The notes: generated by a model from the letters alone, not told the origin. Shown: positions 2,898 through 58,502, counted from the stretch's first letter. The stretch is 64,000 nucleotides of DNA from an uncultured Candidatus Saccharibacteria bacterium (GCA_964642305.1 CAZXOE010000003.1:33685-97684); one strand, 5' to 3'. A program made the numbers and translations.

Positions 2898-3037
2898 ATT
2901 GAAGTAGAATGCTGGGGTTTTGGCAATATCGCGCGCAAATTCTTTTGAAGACTATTGCTTGCGCTCAAGTCTTCAAAAGGAGGTGCGCGGATTGCTCAAA
3001 AAACCCACAGATGCATCCTAGCATATAGGGAAATATA

Positions 3038-3184
3038 GTCAACCCTCACACCTACTTTTTCATTATTGCATGGTGTTTTTAATATATTGCCTACAAAAAC
3101 TTCATATACCACTTAGTAGATAGGAATTTCTAGGCAAACTTGGAGCACCAAAAACACGATGAAAAAGTAGGTGTGGGGGTCAAC
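3038..3184. repeat. Palindromic MITE-like element, GGTGTGGGGGT family copy 1 (TIR gtcaaccctcacacctacttttt / aaaaagtaggtgtgggggtcaac)
   Basis: ~22-bp terminal inverted repeats around ~100 bp; the interior also pairs partly (ttttcat / atgaaaa). Confidence 0.6.
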
Positions 3185-3255
3185 AAAAAAGGCGCCTTTT
3201 TGAGACGCCCGTTTGGAATTGCTTTATGTTTTATTATTTTGTTGATTTTGGTTAC

Positions 3256-3507
3256 TTACGCGTGCAAACAACCTACTCCCCCGCCAAATGCGAGGAATGC
3301 CGGCCCACCGAATCGGCGCCCGTAGCTGTTTTCGTTGTCGCTATGGACACCATACAGGTGGACAGGGCGACCCTCAACAGCAAGCCAGTCGTTTGTTTCG
3401 CCCGGAAGACAGCTTGTGTCCAATGACAATCCGCTGTCCCCAGGTTTTGGAAATGGGAGCATTTGAAAACACTCTTTACCTACTATCTTTCTCGGCATAA
3501 TATACAA
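3256..3507 (-). CDS. Hypothetical protein (83 aa) in a locally GC-rich patch
   Basis: ORF only; AAAGGGG 10 nt upstream of ATG; no recognisable domain. Confidence 0.2.
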   Translation of the reverse strand: MYIMPRKIVGKECFQMLPFPKPGDSGLSLDTSCLPGETNDWLAVEGRPVHLYGVHSDNENSYGRRFGGPAFLAFGGGVGCLHA

Positions 3508-3677
3508 CCCCTTTTTGTTAAATTAAAGAACTCTTAACCATAGCCCCATGCCATAGTTAATTACCTTTCATTATACCATTTTAGATAATAAAACGCAATG
3601 GCGCCCGACAGTTTGACAAGAGTAATTTCTAGGAATAGTCTACATACAGCACAGTACAAATAACCAAGGAGAATGCG

Positions 3678-4211
3678 ATGCGCTACTTTATAGCACACAT
3701 TTTAGAGGATTATGTTGCAATATATCATAGCGCGCTTGCTGGCGAGCTTTCCACAGGGTTTGGTGTAAACGCAAGCGCTTCATTGTTTCCAGCACATATC
3801 ACAATCAAGGCGCCATTTAATATGGATGACGTGACAGAGATAAAAGAGGAGCTAAAGAAATTCGCCTCCACTCATTACGCGCCATCATTCACCATTCAGA
3901 ACTTCGGGCACTTTGGTGATAAAGTGATATTCCTTGATGTAGAGCGCAATTGTATGCTCTCTATTCTCGTATGGGATATACAAAACACCATAAAAAAGGT
4001 AACTGATCTAACCTGGGAGAAACACGAGCCATTGGAGATTCTCCATGTCACTATTGCAAAAAATTTTGACACGAAAAAATTTGATGCGATTTGGCATCGT
4101 CTACTGATGAAAAACTCTCCAACATTCAAATTATCATTTAACAATGTCACCCTTCTTCGTTTGGAAGATAATGCTTGGGTAGTAGACAGCGTCTACTACC
4201 TCAACAAATGA
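3678..4211 (+). CDS. 2H phosphoesterase superfamily protein (LigT / 2'-5' RNA ligase-like)
   Basis: Two H-x-T-x motifs (AHITIK and LHVTIA) spaced as in the 2H fold; followed by rho-independent terminator. Confidence 0.6.
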   Translation: MRYFIAHILEDYVAIYHSALAGELSTGFGVNASASLFPAHITIKAPFNMDDVTEIKEELKKFASTHYAPSFTIQNFGHFGDKVIFLDVERNCMLSILVWDIQNTIKKVTDLTWEKHEPLEILHVTIAKNFDTKKFDAIWHRLLMKNSPTFKLSFNNVTLLRLEDNAWVVDSVYYLNK

Positions 4212-4225
4212 TCTGCACTATACTC

Positions 4226-4256
4226 AAAAGCCGCCTTTCAGGCGGCTTTATTTATA
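4226..4256 (+). terminator. Rho-independent terminator after 2H phosphoesterase gene
   Basis: aaaagccgcc tttca ggcggcttt + T-run. Confidence 0.7.
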
Positions 4257-4369
4257 TTTTTGTAGAAATCGTGTGCTTTGTGACAGTGTGATGTTAAAAC
4301 ATTATATTATATATTTCTCTAAACAATTGGCTAAGGGGTGCATCCAGGAGTTTACATCTAGGATGTTTG

Positions 4370-4398
4370 CGTCCAAGACGTGAACTTGCTAGTTCAAA
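4370..4398 (+). repeat. 30-nt double-hairpin repeat, copy A (cgtccaagacgtgaacttgctagttca)
   Basis: Constant CGTCCAAGACGT + hairpin GAAyT-loop-ArTTC; shared by six loci. Confidence 0.6.
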
Positions 4399-4551
4399 GT
4401 CTGCTGATTCGGCCCAAGGCACAGATCTGCTGATTCGTAGCTGTCCTTACTTCATTCACATAATCTCTAGGGTTCTAAAGATTACAATATGCTGTTTCGA
4501 ATTCGCTTCTCATTCACCAGAATGACCTAAGGGTCGAGTACAAAAGCGTGG

Positions 4552-4580
4552 CTGAATTAGCAAATTCACGTCTTGGACGC
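4552..4580 (-). repeat. 30-nt double-hairpin repeat, copy B (inserted into loop of gcgtgg/ccacgc hairpin of the larger element)
   Basis: 28/28 identical to copy E at 57958; absent from the paralogous element at 19082. Confidence 0.6.
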
Positions 4581-4650
4581 TGAGACCACGCGGTATTGAC
4601 CTTTATTAGCTCCTCGGCTCGGTACTGAAAAAGATTACTTTTTTTATCTT

Positions 4651-4678
4651 CGTCCAAGACGCGAATCTGGTGATTCGT
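4651..4678 (+). repeat. 30-nt double-hairpin repeat, copy C (gaatc-tggt-gattc stem variant)
   Basis: cgtccaagacgcgaatctggtgattcg. Confidence 0.55.
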
Positions 4679-4737
4679 CTACGTCGCTAATAAAAAGGCG
4701 ACCGTACGGTCGCCTTGGAATGTGAGCGCAATGAAAT

Positions 4738-5130
4738 TTATTGCACGCGAATGTGGTCAAAAAACTGCGGGTGCTTACGGAATGGTGTTTTGTTTTTGTT
4801 CACACTCTTGCTGTGGTGTGTGGCTGCGAATGCATCAGACCACAAATGACGAGAATGACGCGGGGCACCACGATGATGCAAATGAAGGAAAAAATGATCA
4901 TTGCCTGTGCTACCAAGACTGATTTCTGCTAAACTGCGGATCGCTGGAGATGCAGACTCTTCGCTCCTGTCCGGCATTTCCAAATTGCTGCCTTGTTCAC
5001 TTATCTCGCGAAAACATCCACGATCCTGCGCTTCCAAAAAGTCACCGCCATCATCATTTGGAACAACATATGGGGTTGAAACAAGGTGTCCGCTAAAGAC
5101 TTGTTGCACATCACTGCACATATCAAACAT
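4738..5130 (-). CDS. Hypothetical protein (130 aa)
   Basis: ORF only; no SD; no recognisable domain. Confidence 0.2.
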   Translation of the reverse strand: MFDMCSDVQQVFSGHLVSTPYVVPNDDGGDFLEAQDRGCFREISEQGSNLEMPDRSEESASPAIRSLAEISLGSTGNDHFFLHLHHRGAPRHSRHLWSDAFAATHHSKSVNKNKTPFRKHPQFFDHIRVQ

Positions 5131-5277
5131 TATTATCTCCCTATAAATAAAAGTACTGCGCCCATTACCGCAAACATCTACGGTAAACTATCTAAGATAG
5201 TACAACAAATGCAGGGTATATGCAAATAAAAACATGGCGACATACAGATCGCCATGTTTTTATTTGCATATATTCCT

Positions 5278-5823
5278 CTACTTCTTAAATGGAACTCCGA
5301 TAATATCAAAAAATGCCGTAGCTTCTTTTTTGTTCTTTGCAGTAGTCACAACAGTAACTGCTAAACCGAAAAGGTCTTTTATGTCCTCGTCAGAAACTTC
5401 TGGGAAAATTGTCTGCTCTTTTACGCCGAGAGTTACATTGCCCATTTCATCAATACTCTTTCGGTCATAGCCACGGAAGTCGCGAGTACGAGGGATTGCA
5501 ACATTGAAAAACTTGTCTAGGAAGCCTATCATACGCGCACCTCGGAGTGTTACCGCAACCCCAATCTTGTCGCCTTCGCGGAGCTTAAATGCAGCGATGG
5601 ACTTCTTTGCAGCGCGGAGCGAAGGCTTCTGTCCGGTAATCTTTGCAATGCGTCCCATTACCATTTCGTTGCGGTTCTTATCCTTTGCGCGTCCAGTTGT
5701 CGCGGACACAACCACCTTCACGAGACGAGGAGCGGCAAGCTTGGCCTTGTAGCCAAAATCTTTCTTCATCGCATCAAATGCGCCTGCTTGTTTTTCCTTT
5801 ACTGATTTAAATGCTGATTTCAT
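5278..5823 (-). CDS. rplE: 50S ribosomal protein L5
   Basis: L5 signature (KAKLAAPRLVKVVVS…TLRGARM…FPEV). Confidence 0.9.
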   Translation of the reverse strand: MKSAFKSVKEKQAGAFDAMKKDFGYKAKLAAPRLVKVVVSATTGRAKDKNRNEMVMGRIAKITGQKPSLRAAKKSIAAFKLREGDKIGVAVTLRGARMIGFLDKFFNVAIPRTRDFRGYDRKSIDEMGNVTLGVKEQTIFPEVSDEDIKDLFGLAVTVVTTAKNKKEATAFFDIIGVPFKK

Positions 5824-8384: not shown

Positions 8385-8855
8385 TTATTTTGTTTTCTTT
8401 ACGGCTGTTTTTGCTTTAGGTTTTGCAGCTGCTTTCACCTTTGCAAGAGCAGTTTTCTTTGAAACTTTCTTTGTCTCACCTTCTACTACAACCTCTTTCT
8501 TCAAGGCCTTCTTAGAAGGTGACACGTCAGCGCTTGCAATAAGCTCAATCATAATATGGCTTGTGTGCTTGTGAATAGGGTGCGCTGAGCCGTGTGACTT
8601 TGGCATTGAACGCTTGAGGATTGTACCCTGGTCAACACGAACTTCTTTTACAAAAAGGTCTTCGAGAGCGATGCCGTCATTCTCCTTTGCATTTGCAATA
8701 GCAGACATCAAAAGCTTCTTCATTGGGCCCGACGCGCGCTTTGGAAGCACGTCAAGCTCCACCAAGGCGCGAGGAACGGTCTTTCCTTTGATAAGATTTG
8801 CTACAAGGCGTACCTTGCGTGGCGCTTGACGATAGCTTCTGAGGATTGCTTTCAT
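8385..8855 (-). CDS. rplV: 50S ribosomal protein L22 with Lys/Ala-rich C-terminal extension
   Basis: L22 core, then KKALKKEVVV…AKTAVKKTK tail. Confidence 0.9.
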   Translation of the reverse strand: MKAILRSYRQAPRKVRLVANLIKGKTVPRALVELDVLPKRASGPMKKLLMSAIANAKENDGIALEDLFVKEVRVDQGTILKRSMPKSHGSAHPIHKHTSHIMIELIASADVSPSKKALKKEVVVEGETKKVSKKTALAKVKAAAKPKAKTAVKKTK

Positions 8856-8864
8856 TGTAGTATA

Positions 8865-9212
8865 TTATTTTTTCTTAGCGGCAGGCGTTTCAGACTTGGC
8901 GGCCTTGGCAGCAGTGATTTCTGCTTCTTTCTTCTTCTGCTCAAGCTCCTTCTGCATCTTGCCTCCGTGTCTTACGAATTTCTTCGTAGGAGAAAACTCT
9001 CCGAGTCTGTGCCCCACCATATCCTCGGTCACTCGGACCTCTAGATGTGTCTTACCGTTATACACGCCAAAAAGGAAGCCTACCATTTCAGGCGAAATCT
9101 GACTTGAACGAGACCAAGTCTTAATTATTTCAGCAGTTTGAGCGCTTTTACCCACCAATTTCTCCAAGAGTCTTTGGTCAATAAATGGTCCTTTTTTGAG
9201 TGATCGTGTCAT
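8865..9212 (-). CDS. rpsS: 30S ribosomal protein S19 with C-terminal extension
   Basis: MTRSLKKGPFID…GHRLGEF S19 signature. Confidence 0.9.
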   Translation of the reverse strand: MTRSLKKGPFIDQRLLEKLVGKSAQTAEIIKTWSRSSQISPEMVGFLFGVYNGKTHLEVRVTEDMVGHRLGEFSPTKKFVRHGGKMQKELEQKKKEAEITAAKAAKSETPAAKKK

Positions 9213-9238
9213 TTGGTAAAATAAAATATGTGAAAAAC

Positions 9239-9347
9239 GACCCAGCCCTTACTTTGCTGCGTAAAACTTAACTTACTACAAGCAACACTGAAACTGCATA
9301 CTATACTAATTCTCTATATTATGCAACAAAGTAGGGGCTGGGTTCGA
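9239..9347. repeat. Long-range inverted repeat (cccagcccttactttg / caaagtaggggctggg) upstream of rpsS
   Basis: Same CCCAGCCC/GGGCTGGG word as ribosomal-protein spacer elements. Confidence 0.5.
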
Positions 9348-9379
9348 TACGCATCTTATCAGATTGAAGAATAATGTCA

Positions 9380-9418
9380 AATCGGGGGTTCTGGGCAATA
9401 CCCAGAACCCCCGATTTT
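9380..9418. terminator. Bidirectional hairpin terminator ending the inserted cassette before rpsS
   Basis: atcgggggttctggg caata cccagaacccccgat, 15-bp perfect stem + T-run. Confidence 0.75.
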
Positions 9419-9432
9419 AAGTGACTTTTCGA

Positions 9433-10485
9433 CTAGAACTGCCAGAATTTCGTCTTTGGCTTGCAGTCTGCTGGAGAGTTTGTAAGATTTTCCCCGGCAG
9501 CAACGTCACAGGTTCCATTATTAACAGAAGGAACACATGCCCCTCCAGAGAGAATTTGGAGTGTTGGGCACGTATTACAACCAGGAACATTTGTTGTTCC
9601 ACCATTGCATATCAGGGAACCAAATTCGTTACCAGGAGTAGTAGTACCACCAGTACCTGAACAACCTGTACCACTACAAGAGTAGCATTGCAAGGATACG
9701 GTATTATAAAAATCACCATTTGCGCATTGATTACATGCGGAGGGATTAATTGCGCCATTACTGCAATTAAATTGAGGCCCCTGTACAGAATAAGAGCTTC
9801 CATCCTGCGCTGTGCCAGAGAAATTAACCCACCCGATAACACTAACGCCAATAGGATCACTATCACCACTTGGCAAAACCTTTGCCCCTCCCCACGCATA
9901 ACCAGAAAACTTGCCGTCAGAAGGGTTAATCTTAACGGGGTTCGTCCATGTGTCAGAAAGTTTAATCCATCCATCCCAGCCACCAGCATTGCTATTCTGT
10001 GCACACTGAGCCGGAACAAGGTTGCCTAGTGCGTCCTGAGTACAAGCAGCGAGCGCGCGCGCCCAACCAGTTACATTACCTGTTACTAAATCAACTTTTG
10101 CGATTGCTCCAGCCGTTAGTCTGTATGGGTCTGCCGGTGGATTACCTGTCCTTGATCTGTCAAAGCTTATCCAACCGATTCCCCCCTGATCTGGGTTTGG
10201 CGCTGTGTCAATGTCCGATGACCAAGCGTTCCCTGAAAAATCCCCTGTATCTGGGTCAAGATTTACACTATACGGACTTCCATCAGTTGCAGTACCAGAA
10301 AAACTGATCCAACCAACCGTGTCAGTCCATGCGTACCCAGTAAGTGCAGTTGGCGCCGCCTCTGCCTTCGGTATTGCTACAGAACCAGGGTTTACCGTAT
10401 ACGCCACATAGCCAAGGCCCAATGCAATAAAGAACGCGAATACGTTACGCGCAGAGTGAATTGTAAATGTTTTTATGTTCATCAC
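9433..10485 (-). CDS. Secreted repeat protein (4x G[YN]AW…GWISF repeats, Cys-rich C-terminus), inserted in ribosomal-protein operon
   Basis: N-terminal TM/signal; ~4 internal repeats; 16 Cys in the last 110 aa. Confidence 0.6.
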   Translation of the reverse strand: MMNIKTFTIHSARNVFAFFIALGLGYVAYTVNPGSVAIPKAEAAPTALTGYAWTDTVGWISFSGTATDGSPYSVNLDPDTGDFSGNAWSSDIDTAPNPDQGGIGWISFDRSRTGNPPADPYRLTAGAIAKVDLVTGNVTGWARALAACTQDALGNLVPAQCAQNSNAGGWDGWIKLSDTWTNPVKINPSDGKFSGYAWGGAKVLPSGDSDPIGVSVIGWVNFSGTAQDGSSYSVQGPQFNCSNGAINPSACNQCANGDFYNTVSLQCYSCSGTGCSGTGGTTTPGNEFGSLICNGGTTNVPGCNTCPTLQILSGGACVPSVNNGTCDVAAGENLTNSPADCKPKTKFWQF

Positions 10486-10592
10486 GTTAGAGGTTTATTT
10501 AGAAATCTTCTAATAAAAATTTATACCGTCATCTGCTTCCTTGTCTTTGTTGAAAAAACAGCGGAATCTCTAACAGGATTCATTTAAGTATT

Positions 10593-10624
10593 ATACCTCC
10601 ACGCCTATTTTTTGCATAGGATAT
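10593..10624 (-). promoter_or_regulatory. Sigma70-like promoter (TATGCA-N17-TATAAT) with conserved GCGTGGAGG spacer, ~108-nt leader
   Basis: rc reads tatgcaaaaaataggcgtggaggtataat; near-identical motif upstream of next gene. Confidence 0.5.
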
Positions 10625-10670
10625 TCAGTTGCTTTTTACAAGAATGCTGTGGATAAGTGCTTAACAAGCA

Positions 10671-10985
10671 TTACTTCCCTTTTACTTTTTGTTCTAGGCG
10701 ATTGAATCGAATTCGCAGATCGTCAAATTCATATCTTGGCACAAAACGATCACCGAGATTCAATACATCCTGCCTTGTGGCACTCAAATTGTCTTCAACA
10801 CTAACCAACCTGTCCTCAACACTAACCAACCTCTCTTCAACACTAACCAACTTGTCCTCAACTTTTACTATTCTGTCCTCAACTCTGTCAAATCCTTTTG
10901 CAACCATAATAGCCAAGTTATCAATAGTAACGGCGATGTCATCAATTGTCACTTTTTTATTAGTTTTATTGGTTGTTTTTTTCAT
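10671..10985 (-). CDS. Small coiled-coil protein with heptad repeats (encoded by ~5 tandem 21-nt repeats at ~10797-10905)
   Basis: VEDRLVSVEDRLVSVEERLVSVEDKLV. Confidence 0.5.
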   Translation of the reverse strand: MKKTTNKTNKKVTIDDIAVTIDNLAIMVAKGFDRVEDRIVKVEDKLVSVEERLVSVEDRLVSVEDNLSATRQDVLNLGDRFVPRYEFDDLRIRFNRLEQKVKGK

Positions 10986-11022
10986 ATCTCAATTATACCC
11001 ACGCGCTTATCTTTTGCAAAGT
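10986..11022 (-). promoter_or_regulatory. Consensus promoter TTTGCA-N17-TATAAT-N6-ATG (leaderless transcript)
   Basis: rc reads tttgcaaaagataagcgcgtgggtataattgagatATG. Confidence 0.6.
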
Positions 11023-11131
11023 GAATTTCTAGGTGTTAGTCTATAAATCGCAACATTATTCACAAACTAGACCACACAAAAACCAAAAGCATGATGTCCT
11101 CACTTACCCCATTTCTATTTTTATTTTTATC

Positions 11132-12064
11132 TTATATCGGGCAACAATAGAGCTTAAATGAGTTTGTGTCTGGGTGATAATGTGGACCGTTTATTCCATT
11201 AACATACGTACCGGCGGGGCAAAAAACCGAACCGCCAGCGTACACACCCGTCTGCGCAGTCCAGAAGCAAGCTCCACCAGCTCCCCCAGCCGTACTCAAA
11301 CACTTTCCTGCTGTCGTACAAACATCTGTTACAGTGACCTTTCCGTTAGCCAACTCTATTCCTCCAGTATTTGTCCCAGAGGAATTAAGAGTACGCAATG
11401 AGATAGTGTTATCTAATAATCTTATATAAGATCCGCCTCTTGTATTTGTTACTCTCCCGTAATAAGGGCTTCCATTAATATTGTTCCCTATCCCGACCCC
11501 TCCCCATGTCCATCCTGGTTCGCTTGCCCACAGGCTCATAACAGCCGTGTTGACGCCATCAATTCCTTGACCATAATGATCAGAAAACAATCGTGCTTGA
11601 GTTGAAGAATGGTCTCCCTTGATTTCCAGTTTTTTCTGTGGCGCCGTTGTTCCGATGCCAACACTACCGCCGTTTGGATTCAAAACTAAATTGTAATTCG
11701 TGTTGTCATTAGTATAGCGTGGTTGTATCCAGCCATATTGAGGAGTGACATCAGCAGTGACTCCCATTGACATCTGAACACCGGTACCAGTGCCACCAAG
11801 CATTATGCTTCCATTTGGTGTCGCAGAATTTGATGGAGCGTTGATGGAACCTGCTGTGTGTAGAGGTGCTTGTGGTGTTGTAACTCCAATCCCCACTCTG
11901 CCAGCCTTCGTCTGCGCGGTTGCGCTCGTATTTATTGGCGCGGAAACATTCCCTGCAGGAGGAGATTGTGTCGGTGCTGTCCACGCATACACGTACGAAA
12001 GTCCAAAGGAAAGAACGACTGCTAGAGTGAGAATTTTAAGTGGTGAAAAGATTTTGTTGGTCAT
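11132..12064 (-). CDS. Secreted protein (signal peptide, VGIG(T/V)TxPQ repeats, Cys-rich C-terminus)
   Basis: Signal peptide MTNKIFSPLKILTLAVVLSFGLSYVYA; internal GRVGIGVTTPQ / GSVGIGTTAPQ repeat. Confidence 0.55.
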   Translation of the reverse strand: MTNKIFSPLKILTLAVVLSFGLSYVYAWTAPTQSPPAGNVSAPINTSATAQTKAGRVGIGVTTPQAPLHTAGSINAPSNSATPNGSIMLGGTGTGVQMSMGVTADVTPQYGWIQPRYTNDNTNYNLVLNPNGGSVGIGTTAPQKKLEIKGDHSSTQARLFSDHYGQGIDGVNTAVMSLWASEPGWTWGGVGIGNNINGSPYYGRVTNTRGGSYIRLLDNTISLRTLNSSGTNTGGIELANGKVTVTDVCTTAGKCLSTAGGAGGACFWTAQTGVYAGGSVFCPAGTYVNGINGPHYHPDTNSFKLYCCPI

Positions 12065-12074
12065 GTTTTATATA

Positions 12075-12677
12075 TTATTGGATTTGTATCTCACTTACTA
12101 GAAACTCTTTGGACATTTTTATATTTTCTACGGCGGTAACATTGAGTACGGCTCCTACTGTGATGCTTGCTATATCAGTCATAGTTTTTGTTGATGGCGG
12201 TGGTGGTGTTGCAGGCAAAGAACCAGCTTTGGCTGATTGCATATTTTTTATAAGTACGTCCATTTCTGCCTTTAACACTTCTGGTGTTTTTTGTGTATGT
12301 TTAAAAATTTTTGTGTCAGCAGTGACTGTAACGATACGGTCAGCAAGCGCTGGGTCGTCAAAAGGGTTTTGAGATTCTGTGTGAATAGTGATTTTATTTC
12401 CACTGATAGCAGTGACTGAACCAGAGAGTGTGCGAATGTCGTCGGGAGTTTTAAATATCATTCCCATTGGGCTTTCTAGAACTCTATTTTTTGCCGCATC
12501 AAAGCCTGCTTGATAGGTGTTATTACCTGCGCTCACAGGTGCTTGTTTAAAGTATACAAATGTTGCGCCTACTCCGACAATGATGCCGACTAAAACTGCT
12601 CCAATGTACTGCGTGGTGTGTGACGGGCACACAAGTGGTTGTTGTTGATCCATAATTACAAGTATAACACCTTTCAA
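12075..12677 (-). CDS. Membrane-anchored hypothetical protein (single N-terminal TM)
   Basis: TM YIGAVLVGIIVGVGATFVYF; 10 nt upstream of the previous gene, likely co-transcribed. Confidence 0.5.
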   Translation of the reverse strand: MKGVILVIMDQQQPLVCPSHTTQYIGAVLVGIIVGVGATFVYFKQAPVSAGNNTYQAGFDAAKNRVLESPMGMIFKTPDDIRTLSGSVTAISGNKITIHTESQNPFDDPALADRIVTVTADTKIFKHTQKTPEVLKAEMDVLIKNMQSAKAGSLPATPPPPSTKTMTDIASITVGAVLNVTAVENIKMSKEFLVSEIQIQ

Positions 12678-12701
12678 AATTTACAAATGAACAATGCTGT
12701 G

Positions 12702-12747
12702 GATAACAAAACCCCGCCTGTCAGCTGACAGGCGGGGTTTTGTTATC
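12702..12747. terminator. Perfect 21-bp hairpin between rplB and the inserted cassette
   Basis: gataacaaaaccccgcctgtcag|ctgacaggcggggttttgttatc. Confidence 0.6.
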
Positions 12748-12750
12748 TTT

Positions 12751-12812
12751 ACCACAGCCCTTCAAGAAGAGGCTGGGTAGAAAAATTATTGTCGCTTCGC
12801 TCTTTAATTTTT
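12751..12812. repeat. Ribosomal-protein spacer-type repeat unit just downstream of rplB (ccacagccc…ggctgggtag + aaaaattattgtcgcttcgctctttaattttt)
   Basis: Aligns with 15579-15670 unit (GGCTGGGTAG-…TTGTCGCTTCGCTCTTTAA). Confidence 0.55.
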
Positions 12813-12813
12813 A

Positions 12814-13653
12814 CTACTTCGAGCGCTTGGTCTTGCGACGGGCGACGATGAGGTTGTTTGAGTACTTCTTTGGTGAACGTGTCTTGCGACCTCCTGTTAC
12901 CTTTCCGTACTTTGTCTTTGGGCGCTTTGTTCCGCGTCCTTGTGCTCCTTCACCTCCACCGTATGGGTGATCAACTGGGTTCTTTGCGCTTCCACGAACT
13001 GTTGGGCGAATGCCGAGCCAACGATTGCGTCCTGCTTTTCCAATATTGCGGTGCTTGTATTCCTCGTTTGAAACAGCGCCTATTGATGCCCACACATTTT
13101 CTGAAACCTTTCGGATTTCTCCAGACGGCATCTTTAAATGGCTCTGACCTCTGTCGTTTGCGACCACTTCAGCGTAGTTTCCAGCTGAGCGAGCGATGCG
13201 CGCGCCGCCGTTTGGCTGAAGCTCAATGTTGTATACAAATGTTCCAACAGGAAGCTTGCGCAAAATTGTGCGGTTACCTGCTTTAAGAGGAGCGTCCTCG
13301 GCTGTAATAACTGTGTCGCCTACCTTAATTCCTTGAGGGAGGAGATTATAACGACGCTCTCCGTCTGCGTAGCAAATAACACCAATGAAACCTGAGCGGT
13401 TTGGATCATACTCAACGGTCTCAACCTTTGCTGGGATATTAATCTTATCAAAACGAAAATCAATTTCGCGGAACGAGCGCTTGTGACCACCACCCTTGTG
13501 CTGTGTAGTGATGCGACCAAATGCATTGCGTCCAGAACCACGGCGGAAGCCTGTTGTGAGTGCCTTCAAAGGCTCGTTGGTTGTGAGAACGCCACGATAC
13601 GACACAATGGCTGTCTGGCGATTCGACGGTGTTGTTGGTTTAAACTTTTTCAT
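12814..13653 (-). CDS. rplB: 50S ribosomal protein L2
   Basis: L2 signatures (GGGHKRSFREIDF, PYGGGEG). Confidence 0.9.
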   Translation of the reverse strand: MKKFKPTTPSNRQTAIVSYRGVLTTNEPLKALTTGFRRGSGRNAFGRITTQHKGGGHKRSFREIDFRFDKINIPAKVETVEYDPNRSGFIGVICYADGERRYNLLPQGIKVGDTVITAEDAPLKAGNRTILRKLPVGTFVYNIELQPNGGARIARSAGNYAEVVANDRGQSHLKMPSGEIRKVSENVWASIGAVSNEEYKHRNIGKAGRNRWLGIRPTVRGSAKNPVDHPYGGGEGAQGRGTKRPKTKYGKVTGGRKTRSPKKYSNNLIVARRKTKRSK

Positions 13654-18561: not shown

Positions 18562-18939
18562 TTATTTTAAATAACTTTTTGCCTTATCTACAACCTCCTG
18601 CATTGAATGGCTTACTTTTATCATATATTCGTTTGCGCCAAGTGTAATGGCTCTATCTTGGTCTATCTTTCCGCCAAGATTTGAAAGAACCAATACAGGA
18701 ATATTTGCTGTATCTGGATTTTTCTTGATTTCCTCAAGAATCGCAAAACCGTCTTTCTTGGGCACCATTAGATCAAGAATAATAAGGTCGGGCCTTTCTT
18801 CTATTACCCTTTCTGTCGCCTCCTCGCCACTGGCAATGAGAACGGTGGTGTATCCCTCTTTTAAAAACTTCATCTCATAAACCCTTGAGACATGTTCATC
18901 GTCCTCAATAATAAGAATCTTTTTTTTGTGTTCGCTCAT
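18562..18939 (-). CDS. Single-domain response regulator (CheY-like receiver)
   Basis: KILIIEDDE…DLIILDLMVP…EYMIK receiver motifs, 125 aa. Confidence 0.8.
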   Translation of the reverse strand: MSEHKKKILIIEDDEHVSRVYEMKFLKEGYTTVLIASGEEATERVIEERPDLIILDLMVPKKDGFAILEEIKKNPDTANIPVLVLSNLGGKIDQDRAITLGANEYMIKVSHSMQEVVDKAKSYLK

Positions 18940-19081
18940 GGAAATGTTTGTCAGTAATTAGTGTTCATATTGTACCATTTATAAATATAAACAGGCTATT
19001 TCCTGTGGATAACAGGAACCCAAAAAGTCGGGCCTCCTACAAAATATAGGCCCCTGCGGCAGAGACCGCAGGGTAATACTT

Positions 19082-19246
19082 CGAATTCGCTTCGCTCATA
19101 CAAAAGCGTGGCAGAGACCACGCGGTATTGACCTATATTAGCTCCTCGGCTCGGTACTGAAAAAGATTACTTTTCCAGCACTCTCGCTCTACGTCGCTAA
19201 TAAAGGGCGGTCCTTTTTTAAAAAAGGACTGCCCTTTATTTTTTAG
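19082..19246 (+). repeat. Modular ~150-nt intergenic element, copy 2 (lacks the nested 30-nt repeat) + bidirectional terminator
   Basis: Blockwise identity with 4497-4722; ends in aaagggcggtcctttttt/aaaaaaggactgcccttt hairpin that also terminates fusA. Confidence 0.6.
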
Positions 19247-23454: not shown

Positions 23455-23564
23455 ATGAATTAGGAGTGAAGCGACATAATTCATAGACCCGCCCAAATTT
23501 TGCGAAACAAAACTTAGGCGGGTAATGATTTTCTAATCTCGCTACGCTCGTTAACAAAATCATT
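23455..23564 (+). promoter_or_regulatory. Conserved ~100-nt leader element upstream of rpmB (paralogous to nusA leader)
   Basis: aggagtgaagcgacata…acccgcccaaattttgcgaaacaaaacttaggcgggt…ctcgctacgctc…aaaatcattATG; ~80% identical to 41140-41241. Confidence 0.6.
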
Positions 23565-37585: not shown

Positions 37586-38800
37586 TTATACGTTACTCAT
37601 CACCGAATACATCGGTGAAATCATAGAAACCGCAAAGAAGCCGACTGATGCGCCTATGAACACCATCAATATCGGCTCAATAATTGTAGACATATTTTTT
37701 GTCGCTTCATCAACTTCATTTTCATAGAACAGCGCGACGTTTAGCAGCATTTCAGAAAGCTTCCCTGTTTCCTCACCCACCTCTATCATATCGCCAACAA
37801 GAAGTGGGTAAATATCTGTTTCCGCAAATACAGACGACAATGGAATACCTTTTTGCACACGCTCCTCGGCTAATTTAAGCCTGTCCTTGTAGTATGAATT
37901 TTGTAAAACATCCTTTGTGATAGATATTGCTTCTAGCATATCAACACCAGAAGAAAGTAGAGACGATAGTGTGCGAGCAGTGCGAGCAGAGTTTGACTGA
38001 CGCACAAGATCCCCAACAATTGGCAACCTAAACGATATATATTCAAGCCCGCGCTTGCCCTGCTTTGTGCGAAGTGCGAAAAAAATCGCAGTTCCTATTG
38101 TTGCAACAGCTATCACGCCAAATATCAAATGATTTGAAAGAAAGTCTGATATCCACATAATTACTTTTGTGCTTGTTGGGAGCTCTGTATTTAGCTCCTT
38201 GAATGTCGCAGCTAGTGTGGGTACCACATAAATAAACATCAGCACACCGATAATAATAAGGGTCGCGATAACGACAGATGGATATATCATCGCGCCTTTT
38301 ATTTTCTTTTTTAAAAGATAACTTTTTTCAAGCTGGTCGCCGAGAGTAAGCAGAGCGTCCGAAAGCCCTCCAGACTCCTCTCCTGCGCGAACCATTGAAA
38401 CGAAAACAGGAGAAAAAACTTTTGGGAACTTTGCCATACCAGCGGAAAGAGTTGAACCTTTACTGATTTCTGCAAGCAAAGTTTTCAGAGTTTTTTTGAG
38501 TGCGGGATTTTTTGTCTGGCGCTCCTGAATAGAAAGTCCGCGGGAGAGAGATAACCCCGCGGTCATCATTGCGCTCAGGTTGTGCGAAAATACAATCAGC
38601 TCCTGCACCTTCACGCGAGAGAGCATCTCGTTGATGGTATCCATATTGATAACAAAACCACCTGCGACTTCCTCCACAGATACCACAGACTTCCCTTGTT
38701 TACGCAACTCTGCAGCGACAGCAAAACGATCTTTCGCCTCCATCTCACCGGAAGTTTCATCACCAGACAGTTCGCGTACTTTGTATTTAAATTTTGGCAT
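37586..38800 (-). CDS. pilC: Type IV pilus / T2SS platform protein PilC (GspF family)
   Basis: Two GspF repeats, 3 TM, 404 aa. Confidence 0.85.
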   Translation of the reverse strand: MPKFKYKVRELSGDETSGEMEAKDRFAVAAELRKQGKSVVSVEEVAGGFVINMDTINEMLSRVKVQELIVFSHNLSAMMTAGLSLSRGLSIQERQTKNPALKKTLKTLLAEISKGSTLSAGMAKFPKVFSPVFVSMVRAGEESGGLSDALLTLGDQLEKSYLLKKKIKGAMIYPSVVIATLIIIGVLMFIYVVPTLAATFKELNTELPTSTKVIMWISDFLSNHLIFGVIAVATIGTAIFFALRTKQGKRGLEYISFRLPIVGDLVRQSNSARTARTLSSLLSSGVDMLEAISITKDVLQNSYYKDRLKLAEERVQKGIPLSSVFAETDIYPLLVGDMIEVGEETGKLSEMLLNVALFYENEVDEATKNMSTIIEPILMVFIGASVGFFAVSMISPMYSVMSNV

Positions 38801-38867
38801 TGCTGTTTACAGTATAACAAAGAAAAAAAGAAATTGTGCGAAACTTTTTTGTAAATAGAGCTCCACT

Positions 38868-40754
38868 CTATTCAGATACCACACGGAAAATTTCTTCTAT
38901 AGTCGTCAGCCCTTGAACCGACTTTACTATTCCGTCTTCAAGCATTGTGTTCATTCCTTCTTTTCTCGCCTGCTCCTCTACTACAGCCGAGGTTGCGCCC
39001 TTTATAATAAGTTCGCGAATAGTAGGAGACATTTTCAAAACTTCGTGGATACCAACACGACCTTTGTATCCGTCTTCCGACTCGTCCGTTTTTTTAGGAC
39101 GATAAAAAGGCACATCTTTCCACTCTGCTTTTGGGTCCACGATATTTTCTGCCTTCAGCACTTTCATTATGCGATCAAGATCAACAGATTTTTTTAAGAC
39201 CTCAAGCTCATCAGGGTTCATAAAATACTTTTCCTTCACTGCTGTAAGACGGCGGACGAGGCGCTGAGAGATGATAACGTTCACTGTGGAAACAATGAGA
39301 AACGGCTCAATGTCCATATCAATAAGACGGGGCATTGTGGATGAGGCGGAGTTGGTGTGGAGTGTAGAGAGCACAAGGTGCCCTGTGAGCGCCGCATTCA
39401 CAGCGAGAGATGCTGTTTCATTATCGCGGATTTCACCAACCATAATAATGTCTGGATCCTGACGCATAAGCGTACGTAGTCCAGATGCAAATGTTAGTCC
39501 AATCTCCGACTTTACTTGCGTTTGATTGACGCGCGACATTTGATATTCAATCGGATCCTCAATAGTTGAGATGTTTACGTCCGGCTCATTTAGCAAATCA
39601 AGGATTGTATAAAGTGTCGTGGATTTACCGGATCCAGTAGGTCCCGTGGTAAGGATCATCCCAACGCGTTGCTTCATCGCGTCGTGAATACGCTCAAGGT
39701 TCACACCGGCAAAGCCGAGCCCCTCAAGAGTGAAGCCAGACACCGATTCGCGAAGAAGACGCATAACAGTTTTTTCTCCATAGTAAACAGGGAGAGTTGA
39801 AACACGGAATGCAACTTTTTCTCCGGCAGATTCTATTTTAAAACGCCCGTCCTGTGGCAAACGTTTTTCATCAAGCTTCAAGTTTGCAAGAACTTTCACG
39901 CGCGCAACAATACCAGAAGCGGCAGTTTTTGGAAGAACCATTGCGTCGTGCAAAATTCCATCAATGCGATAACGAATCACCACCTGTGAATCTAGCGGTT
40001 CAATATGAATGTCTGATGCTCCCTGAATAATCGCGTGGTTCAAAAGCGTGTCAACAATTTTCACAACTGGCAAATCCTCTGCAAGTTTTTTTAAATCTTC
40101 CTCGCTTTGTGTCTCCTCTCCATCTGCAACCATTTTTAGTGAGCCTGCCTCCTTTTCAATAATATCTCCAAACTCCGCCTTAAGACTTTTTTGGTACTGA
40201 AGAAGAACACTTTTGATTGACTCCTTGTCTGTTAGTCGTGGAAGAATTTTTAAACCAACCTTTTTTTTCACGAACTCAATAGCACCGAGGTCGTCAGTAT
40301 CAAGCATGGCAACCTCTAGCGTGGTTGTTGTTTTTTTGAATGCGACAATGTTGTTCTTTCTTGCAATGGGCTCCGGTATTAAAGACAGAACTTCAAAGTC
40401 TATTTTTTGATCCTTTAGATTTACAAATGGAATACCTAGAATATACGCCTCAGTGCGACGAAGGTCGTCCTCTGAAAGTTTCCCGTCAGAAACCAAAATA
40501 TTTCCTAAATATGTTTTATTTTCCTCGGCTTGCTTTTCAGCAATGTCTAGCTCTGTGCGTGGCACGAGCCCTGAGTCAGCAATAAAATCTTTCAGTTGTT
40601 TGTTGTTAATGGTCATGAGGGATTGAATATTGAATATTGGAATCATTATATCAAACTTTGCGCACATATAATATGTATAGCTGTGGAATACACAAATATA
40701 AATCGCCGAGAACCATTCTGGCTCTCGGCGATTAAGACGATTAAACTGAAACAA
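38868..40754 (-). CDS. pilB: Type IV pilus assembly ATPase PilB (GspE family); true start probably MTINNKQL
   Basis: GSPII_E N-domain, Walker A GPTGSGKST, Asp/His boxes. Confidence 0.9.
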   Translation of the reverse strand: MFQFNRLNRREPEWFSAIYICVFHSYTYYMCAKFDIMIPIFNIQSLMTINNKQLKDFIADSGLVPRTELDIAEKQAEENKTYLGNILVSDGKLSEDDLRRTEAYILGIPFVNLKDQKIDFEVLSLIPEPIARKNNIVAFKKTTTTLEVAMLDTDDLGAIEFVKKKVGLKILPRLTDKESIKSVLLQYQKSLKAEFGDIIEKEAGSLKMVADGEETQSEEDLKKLAEDLPVVKIVDTLLNHAIIQGASDIHIEPLDSQVVIRYRIDGILHDAMVLPKTAASGIVARVKVLANLKLDEKRLPQDGRFKIESAGEKVAFRVSTLPVYYGEKTVMRLLRESVSGFTLEGLGFAGVNLERIHDAMKQRVGMILTTGPTGSGKSTTLYTILDLLNEPDVNISTIEDPIEYQMSRVNQTQVKSEIGLTFASGLRTLMRQDPDIIMVGEIRDNETASLAVNAALTGHLVLSTLHTNSASSTMPRLIDMDIEPFLIVSTVNVIISQRLVRRLTAVKEKYFMNPDELEVLKKSVDLDRIMKVLKAENIVDPKAEWKDVPFYRPKKTDESEDGYKGRVGIHEVLKMSPTIRELIIKGATSAVVEEQARKEGMNTMLEDGIVKSVQGLTTIEEIFRVVSE

Positions 40755-41139: not shown

Positions 41140-41241
41140 GGAGCAAAGCGACATATTTTACTTAACCCGCCAAAATTTTCTGAAAGAAAACTTAGGCGGG
41201 TGAGATTTTCAACCTCGCTTCGCTCAAAGAAAATCATCATC
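41140..41241 (+). promoter_or_regulatory. Conserved ~100-nt leader element upstream of nusA (paralogous to rpmB leader)
   Basis: aggagcaaagcgacata…acccgccaaaattttctgaaagaaaacttaggcgggt…ctcgcttcgctc…aaaatcatcatcATG. Confidence 0.6.
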
Positions 41242-58163: not shown

Positions 58164-58502
58164 TGATCTCTATTGTAACATTTAATATGTTTCGCGTGAA
58201 ACACCCAAATTTAGCCTATTTTTAGGCTAAAAAAGGTTAAATCGCGTGAAACCTATATATATTAAGGGTTTTCTGAGGTTATGACTACTGTCTTTTAGAG
58301 TCTGTGACTTTTTTACTAGCCAATTTTGTGTCCTTTATCAACACTGTCCACAGAGTTATCCACAGTTTTTGGTGTTTTCACCTTATTTTTCTGTTTCCAG
58401 CCGTTGACATAATGTGTCAAAGTAGTGTTTTCTGCGCGGAATGTCCTTTATAAGACGCATACTGCTCGTTTTGGTTAAGTACTTATCAAAAACCGAACAC
58501 CC

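Follow-up and report, generated by a model that had tools for sequence, protein, structure and literature searches.

Few gene arrangements in prokaryotes are as conserved as the S10/spc cluster of ribosomal-protein genes. Its S10 operon has the canonical order rpsJ-rplC-rplD-rplW-rplB-rpsS-rplV-rpsC-rplP-rpmC-rpsQ, and in Escherichia coli the leader before rpsJ is subject to L4-mediated attenuation. The ribosomal-protein genes of the cluster also commonly serve as a block of syntenic markers in the phylogenetic placement of Candidate Phyla Radiation (CPR) genomes. To our knowledge, the Paceibacteria have no cultured representatives. We analyzed the S10 operon in a 64,000-nt stretch from an uncultured, tiny-genome bacterium of the CPR (Paceibacteria) (GCA_964642305.1, CAZXOE010000003.1:33685-97684; the window, with coordinates counted from its first letter). 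From rpsJ to rpsQ, gene order and shared strand match the canonical operon in full, but the operon is cut between rplB and rpsS, by 3.6 kb in the window and by 1.4-8.6 kb in its relatives, and the tight spacing of the S10 operon is lost at this junction. The minus strand reads tuf-rpsJ-rplC-rplD-rplW-rplB, then four open reading frames (ORFs), then rpsS-rplV-rpsC-rplP and the rest of the S10/spc cluster. We consider it probable, if by no means certain, that the operon is split here into two transcription units, with a variable island of cell-envelope genes between them. Literature searches on the operon split, on Yonathbacteria and on the sequence motifs of the gap returned no prior description. 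The genes at the junction are as follows.

12814-13653, minus strand: rplB (L2), TIGR01171 match (E 4e-104) with Pfam L2_N and L2_C, closing the upstream half of the S10 operon
12075-12653, minus strand: A200, single-pass membrane protein of 192 amino acids (aa), start ATG at 12653
11132-12064, minus strand: B310, predicted secreted protein with a Sec-type signal ending in VYA (followed by WT), VGIGTTxPQ motifs and a cysteine (Cys)-rich end
10671-10985, minus strand: C104, small coiled-coil protein with no signal or transmembrane (TM) segment
9433-10485, minus strand: D350, with an N-terminal TM segment or signal, repeats, a hypervariable Cys-rich region and a conserved C-terminal tail (...KPKTKFWQF)
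8865-9212, minus strand: rpsS (S19), TIGR01050 match (E 4e-34), opening the downstream half (rpsS-rplV-rpsC-rplP-...)

A first-pass annotation of the window had placed four genes in 3.6 kb between rpsS and rplB, and gene calls, TIGRFAM matches and four assemblies confirm this. All four ORFs are real genes with homologs (210 for D350, 300 for B310 and 42 for C104, with A200 matched in relatives by tblastn and phmmer), which answers the doubt, raised in the same annotation, that they might be non-coding or pseudogenes. The identical arrangement rplB-A200-B310-C104-D350-rpsS was assembled independently in four ENA samples and is thus not a misassembly. This population occurs in groundwater samples (ENA ERZ27247837 and related). 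A chimeric contig or a run of decayed ORFs has next to no probability: many related contigs do end inside the gap, marking the locus as hard to assemble, but the locus is syntenic in dozens of species and the homologs of all four ORFs are full-length.

We compared the rplB neighbourhoods of 80 species-level genomes (L001-L080), labelled Yonathbacteria, Nomurabacteria, Paceibacterota and similar. Those with an rplB at least 76% identical to that of the window were taken as the close, Yonathbacteria-like clade. Synteny shows rplB and rpsS apart in the close clade and in most of the Paceibacteria sampled, with a spacing above 350 bp in 36 of 58 loci and above 1 kb in 27 of 58. All ten close-clade loci carrying both genes exceeded 350 bp (1.4-8.6 kb, median 2.7 kb), and in distant genomes the spacing ran from 18 bp to 8.9 kb. 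No rpsS was present within 10 kb of rplB in L014 and L005. As a control, every junction from rpsJ to rplF was measured in the same loci, with more than 350 bp as the threshold for open spacing. Ten junctions had no locus above it, rplX to rplE had one and rplW to rplB two; the remaining soft junctions were rpsJ to rplC (15 of 70) and rplE to rpsH (23 of 38, a figure that includes the small rpsN). The break is therefore junction-specific and lineage-wide. Among the junctions of the S10/spc cluster, rplB-rpsS is the principal weak point, and the split there is ancient rather than a one-off insertion. The first-pass picture of an autonomous cassette inserted into an otherwise normal operon was not borne out. 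The break may also help to explain why many CPR contigs stop directly after rplB, which matters for binning and marker recovery.

Seven of the 19 close-clade contigs (L002, L003, L008, L010, L013, L017, L018) end inside the rplB-rpsS gap, consistent with strain-level heterogeneity breaking assemblies there. The third soft junction, rpsJ-rplC, is open almost exclusively in more distant Paceibacteria. The spc part of the window has a second break, of about 2.4 kb (2898-5277), between rplE (5278-5823) and rpsN (2712-2897). It holds a gene for a 2'-5' RNA ligase (LigT-like) at 3678-4211 on the opposite strand, along with ORFs of non-coding appearance, and the rplE to rpsH distance exceeds 1 kb in 11 of 38 related loci.

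The content of the gap was examined with a family profile built from 52 D350 homologs. A D350-family gene was detected in the gap of all 14 close-clade loci with enough sequence, directly before rpsS wherever rpsS was captured, and in none of the gaps of 61 more distant loci. Distant D350 homologs picked by sequence alone (33-36% identity) also lie between rplB and rpsS, as do those of several metagenome loci. A200- and B310-type genes occur in only some relatives, in varying combinations and alongside other genes. L003, L010, L011 and L032 carry an A200 homolog in the gap, and L023 carries one downstream of rplE. C104 homologs in relatives adjoin rpsP or follow trmD, and do not lie in the rplB-rpsS gap. 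One relative carries a 2,422-residue protein in the gap. D350 alone is the conserved resident; the presence of A200, B310 and C104 varies. In distant lineages the gap has other occupants, many with N-terminal hydrophobic segments, some on the opposite strand and some shared within sub-clades. Those on the opposite strand are conserved per sub-clade (L058, L060 and L068; L070 and L079), one being a membrane protein of ~246-263 aa and another a protein of ~390 aa.

The borders of homology are sharp. Nucleotide identity of the flanking ribosomal genes is ~80-86% in nearer species and 72-79% in further ones, and this similarity ends at the rplB stop codon and returns at the rpsS promoter or start. 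The only alignable islands between are the terminator with a 9-nt box, TTATCCACA; the rpsS promoter; and, where the D350 ortholog is among the nearest, the gene's 5' half and its final 30-94 nt. D350 protein identity is 28-61% in genomes whose rplB is 91-96% identical, and the orthologs vary by indels and length changes. Within 8800-13000 there was no template/variable repeat pair of a diversity-generating retroelement, and no genome-wide search for a reverse transcriptase was made. Sharp homology edges at conserved flanks, mosaic content and exported, fast-diverging products liken this gap to O-antigen, capsule and surface-antigen islands. It differs from O-antigen and capsule loci in that the flanks are core ribosomal genes of a normally single operon and the products are proteins of unknown function, not enzymes of glycan synthesis; the likeness does not imply exchange by recombination. 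The finding is more general than the first-pass annotation had it, namely a clade-wide split of the S10 operon holding a putative fast-evolving island of envelope proteins.

Repeats had been reported at both borders of the four-gene region. The only clear border repeat that we found is an exact 14-mer, TTATCCACAGCATT, present twice; it brackets A200-B310-C104 and not the whole cassette.

12693-12706, minus strand: TTATCCACAGCATT copy 1, containing TTATCCACA (12698-12706), 31 nt upstream of the A200 -10
10643-10656, minus strand: TTATCCACAGCATT copy 2, containing TTATCCACA (10648-10656), upstream of D350 and 2,050 bp from copy 1

This direct repeat is the sole mobile-element-like trait of the gap. 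Together with the differing gap content of species with highly similar flanks, it speaks for a single four-gene cassette, recently inserted as a unit into an intact S10 operon in the manner of a mobile element. We regard such an insertion as quite improbable, and the idea of one autonomous four-gene module is not supported: D350 sits at the site clade-wide and the other genes come and go, in different combinations or, for C104, elsewhere in the genome; the junction is open in most of the Paceibacteria sampled; and the 14-mer holds a candidate promoter box also seen at other sites. The gap region has neither an integrase or transposase gene nor a tRNA, its GC content (0.43-0.46) is that of the flanks, and no viral relatives were found for D350 or B310. 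The TTATCCACAGCATT copies upstream of A200 and D350, bracketing A200-B310-C104, suggest that these additional genes arrived together with the D350 promoter box or acquired a copy of it.

The gap carries its own candidate transcription signals, and hairpins are confirmed at the entry and the exit of the four-gene region.

12696-12758, minus strand: intrinsic terminator after rplB, with a perfect 23+23 nt palindrome core at 12702-12747 (dG -48.3 kcal/mol, z -10)
12661-12669, minus strand: extended -10 of A200/B310 (TGtTATACT), 7 nt before the ATG at 12653, with the same architecture in relatives
10992-11020, minus strand: C104 promoter TTTGCA-N17-TATAAT, 6 nt before the C104 ATG
10595-10590, minus strand: TATAAT upstream of D350, followed after 6 nt by a possible leaderless 20-codon upstream ORF (10583-10521)
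9380-9416, minus strand: terminator-like hairpin after D350, 17 bp (dG -36.1, z -7.6), its 3' end overlapping the rpsS -35
9353-9380, minus strand: rpsS promoter TTGACA-N16-TAAGAT, with TG upstream of the -10
9233-9343, minus strand: rpsS 5' leader with a long hairpin (arms 9319-9343 and 9240-9264; dG -44, z -5.8) and a U-run after it

The palindrome after rplB is followed by GTTTTGTTAT, giving the stem-loop and U-run of an intrinsic terminator, and since A and T runs flank it on both sides it can act in both directions. Nearly all close relatives have a strong hairpin at the same place, with differing stem sequences. The A200 mRNA is predicted to be leaderless, as its -10 lies only 7 nt before the ATG, and the same holds for C104, with TATAAT only 6 nt before its ATG. 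Relatives lack the 20-codon upstream ORF, and in them D350 itself is leaderless. At the other end of the gap, the rpsS promoter is 88-94% nucleotide-identical across relatives that have no other gap sequence in common.

The rpsS leader of most relatives forms a short hairpin with a U-run at the same position (CGAGCTCAyyCCGAGCTTGTTTTGTTT), almost invariant in sequence. L004 and the window have a ~100-nt hairpin in its place, and the two differences between them keep the pairing. As in the E. coli S10 leader attenuator, a hairpin and U-run stand at the 5' end of a ribosomal unit. Here, however, the attenuator-like leader precedes rpsS and not rpsJ, and it has neither sequence similarity to the E. 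coli leader nor an Rfam match; the likeness does not imply binding of a ribosomal protein. Across the gap, Rfam gave no family at gathering thresholds, only sub-threshold hairpin look-alikes with E up to 1.

Taken from sequence signals, this arrangement suggests that the gap is insulated from the ribosomal units and that these form two transcription units, in agreement with insulated expression, one of the two options in the first-pass annotation: gap genes have terminator and promoter signals of their own. The upstream unit would end at the strong terminator after rplB, and the downstream unit would restart at the conserved sigma-70-type rpsS promoter, whose leader hairpin and U-run could attenuate transcription or act as an mRNA-stabilising 5' stem. 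D350 would be the ancestral, fixed resident of the Yonathbacteria-like clade, membrane-anchored or secreted, and transcribed from its own, mostly leaderless promoter with a conserved TTATCCACA box. In the window genome, three genes would have been added upstream of D350, with A200 and B310 probably sharing one promoter and C104 having its own. D350, probably with B310-type fibre-like proteins, would then serve as a surface binding or attachment module whose distal part diversifies fast. If the two-unit reading is true, the S10/spc cluster tolerates division into independently controlled units with no functional loss.

The same signals could be read within one long S10 transcript, in which the hairpins are partial terminators or elements of processing and stability, and the output of surface proteins is tied to ribosomal-protein transcription and growth rate. 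The four genes are co-oriented with the operon, as is the resident in every close-clade locus, and tunable read-through is plausible because the hairpin and U-run after the rpsS promoter look like an attenuator. We nevertheless think a single transcript rather unlikely: the rplB terminator is very strong (perfect stem, U-run, z -10), each unit has its own conserved promoter, and related lineages show opposite-strand residents and separated halves.

The TTATCCACA box adds to the case for dedicated promoters. The window has 5 sites against 0.41 expected, and 388 kb of close-clade sequence has 25 unique sites against ~3 expected. At fourteen of the 25, a -10-like hexamer follows 29-31 nt downstream; it is usually an extended -10 with an ATG 6-8 nt later. 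The box precedes D350 orthologs in ten relatives and A200-type genes in the window, L010 and L032, and it stands directly downstream of the rplB hairpin in many relatives, in otherwise unconserved spacers. This 9-mer equals the DnaA-box consensus. An exact TTATCCACA at a fixed distance upstream of a -10, across species, is what DnaA-box promoters would have in common with it; DnaA binding and regulation are a candidate role, and another regulator could own the box. Together, the TTATCCACA box and the rpsS leader are concrete cis-elements open to testing.

A further TTATCCACA site (19004-19012), followed at 29 nt by an extended -10, lies upstream of a gene for a receiver-only response regulator (18562-18939), just downstream of fusA; it also precedes a 268-aa protein without a Pfam match. 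L007 has a very similar TTATCCACA-N29-extended -10 site. D350 and the response-regulator gene may belong to a common small regulon.

At the N-terminus of D350, basic residues lead into a hydrophobic helix. Four G-Y/F-A-W ... G-W-I-S-F (GYAW/GWISF-type) beta-hairpin repeats follow at about residues 45-236, then the Cys-rich region and the tail. Mean pairwise identity in the family is 56% for the repeat domain, 31% for the Cys-rich part (60-131 residues long) and 63% for the tail, with QF at the C-terminal end of 49 of 52 sequences. An exhaustive search with the D350 profile gave 8,299 clusters (at 50% identity) at E <=1e-3 and 1,257 at E <=1e-30. Large members also contain PKD, Ig-like, Laminin_G_3, PA14 and M12 peptidase domains, an extracellular, adhesin-like repertoire of partners. 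The D350 repeat domain is a very large, Pfam-less and undescribed family. With more than 8,000 clusters, it is a candidate for host-attachment machinery of the Paceibacteria.

Scans of the four gap proteins against Pfam, NCBIfam and PHROGs gave nothing above curated cut-offs, and none of the four has a paralog elsewhere in the window. The D350 profile found only one insignificant match (E 0.44) among PDB sequences, and Foldseek gave no match. The searches proposed in the first-pass annotation, by profile and by structure prediction, therefore yielded homologs but no family match above cut-offs, and an AlphaFold2 model of B310 from a 41-sequence alignment was unusable (pLDDT 58). Short G-W/Y-rich hairpin repeats in an exported protein liken D350 to choline/cell-wall-binding repeats (PF01473) and to small 8-stranded barrels (hemophilin, the TbpB/HpuA barrels, avidins, NspA). 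Unlike those proteins, D350 has no Pfam, PDB or Foldseek match and no known ligand.

Relatives might, the first-pass annotation allowed, hold the same genes at this position as conserved ribosome-associated factors. The shared position stands for D350, and the ribosomal association does not. D350 does lie next to rpsS across a family-level clade, C104 homologs tend to lie near ribosomal-protein genes (e.g. rpsP, trmD), and one GYAW paralog sits between adk and map. However, a role of the gap genes as translation or ribosome-associated factors is very improbable, less clearly so for C104 taken alone. D350, B310 and A200 carry a hydrophobic segment for export or anchoring at the N-terminus, many Cys residues are present in D350 and B310, D350 diverges far faster than its neighbours, and no ribosomal or translation family was matched in Pfam or NCBIfam. 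D350 in particular is not a ribosome-associated factor, because it has a TM segment or signal, is Cys-rich and belongs to a family fused to extracellular domains (PKD, PA14, LamG, Ig).

Of the other gap proteins, B310 is a mosaic of a Sec-type signal, a conserved AWTxPTxxPPxGNVxAPIN module and a VGIGTTxP centre, with 7 Cys in its C-terminal part. The centre is homologous to 'tail fiber domain-containing' proteins of Bacteroidota, Omnitrophota and other phyla. In 18 of 83 loci, GYAW-family genes have a B310-type gene with the AWTxPTxxPPxGNVxAPIN module within 1-3 kb. B310 resembles phage tail-fibre-like proteins, which often carry Peptidase_S74, in this centre and in a weak PHROG tail-fibre match (E 0.0011, over 24 residues only). 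It differs from Peptidase_S74 proteins in that it has no S74 chaperone domain by Pfam, no viral relatives and a CPR-typical N-terminal module; the PDB sequences gave no match to B310 either. A reading of the genes as a phage module was dropped, because scans of viral contigs with the D350 profile and B310 gave no relatives.

A200 has one TM helix, an N-terminal CPxHT motif that is conserved, and a beta domain weakly resembling DUF5666 (E 0.02, below cut-off); its start at 12653 agrees with a further gene call and with the N-termini of homologs. C104 contains four 21-nt tandem repeats encoding heptads, and its 42 homologs have 78-165 aa. The secreted or surface-protein character assigned to the four products on first pass thus fits three, which are predicted to be exported or membrane-anchored, and not C104, which has no export signal.

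A link between the D350 family and type IV pili is suggested by paralogs elsewhere. Three of the four located outside the gap (P0095, P0109, P0116) are inside type IV pilus clusters, adjoining PilB, PilC, PilD and pilin genes, and the fourth lies between adk and map. Pilus genes are within 4 kb of D350-family genes in 6 of 80 metagenome loci. According to one study, type IV pili are well conserved in CPR and predicted to aid symbiotic host interactions (10.1101/2024.11.25.624915), which makes a surface-attachment role of the gap proteins plausible. The window has pilus genes of its own.

38868-40754: PilB-like type IV pilus ATPase
37586-38800: PilC-like platform protein, with several small genes after it

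Six paralogs were looked up in all, and P0068 and P0117 turned out to lie in the gap. The gene between adk and map, a GYAW-family gene at the end of the spc cluster of another lineage (L169, 7001-8248), is a second case of the family inside the ribosomal super-operon.

Several points weigh against a split operon that encloses a surface-protein island. The pattern-based search of the region detected 9 promoters, a number at chance level (7.9 expected), and the gap promoters owe their credibility solely to conservation in relatives; of the promoters claimed on first pass, TTTGCA-N17-TATAAT and the leaderless C104 start were indeed seen, but against a regional count no higher than chance. The TTATCCACA box of the window D350 lies 52 nt from its TATAAT and not the usual ~30, and this promoter has therefore been remodelled. 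Read-through of the hairpins, with co-transcription of the island and the ribosomal genes, could occur. The pilus link is by association only, since the window PilB and PilC genes (37586-40754) lie ~26 kb from D350, outside any shared cluster, and D350 has no prepilin signal: the N-termini of all four gap proteins lack the class III motif (G followed by F-T-L-x-E) and have no N_methyl (PF07963) match. The topology of A200 is ambiguous, because its positive charges come after the TM helix, and C104 does not fit a surface module.

A bolder extension would make the junction a swap slot for surface-recognition genes, with the ultra-conserved ribosomal flanks as homology arms and competent, pilus-bearing CPR cells exchanging hypervariable D350/B310-type modules. 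The proteins would build an attachment apparatus not described before, with a membrane-anchored GYAW-barrel base and a fibre bearing the AWTxP N-terminal module, and TTATCCACA would provide timing by DnaA. We hold this to be unlikely and offer it as speculation.

Two observations concern dispersed motifs in the window. A possible replication origin lies at 58164-58502, where the DnaA-box-like 9-mers TTATCAACA, TGTCCACA and TTATCCACA fall within 30 nt (58335-58364). Cumulative GC skew reaches its minimum near 58 kb, and coding there turns from mostly minus to plus strand. An oriC beside dnaA was rejected, as the neighbours of the cluster near 58.3 kb encode a CCA-adding enzyme, a Fic protein and a member of UPF0102. 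No dnaA or dnaN lies next to the boxes and no dnaA was found in the window, so that the skew, the strand switch and the boxes are what the origin call rests on.

A second motif, GAGCGAAGCGAC, has 5 sites in the window (12791-12802, 19086-19097, 23464-23475, 41141-41152, 41214-41225) against 0.23 expected, and is also present in the rpsS leaders of L007, L009 and L090. The sites examined lie in or near intergenic spacers, among them one after the rplB stop codon and the inverted pair 41141/41214 near the pilB upstream region. Certain copies are arranged as inverted pairs, giving long hairpins, and the motif resembles a small dispersed palindromic element of the repetitive extragenic palindromic (REP) or miniature inverted-repeat transposable element (MITE) kind.

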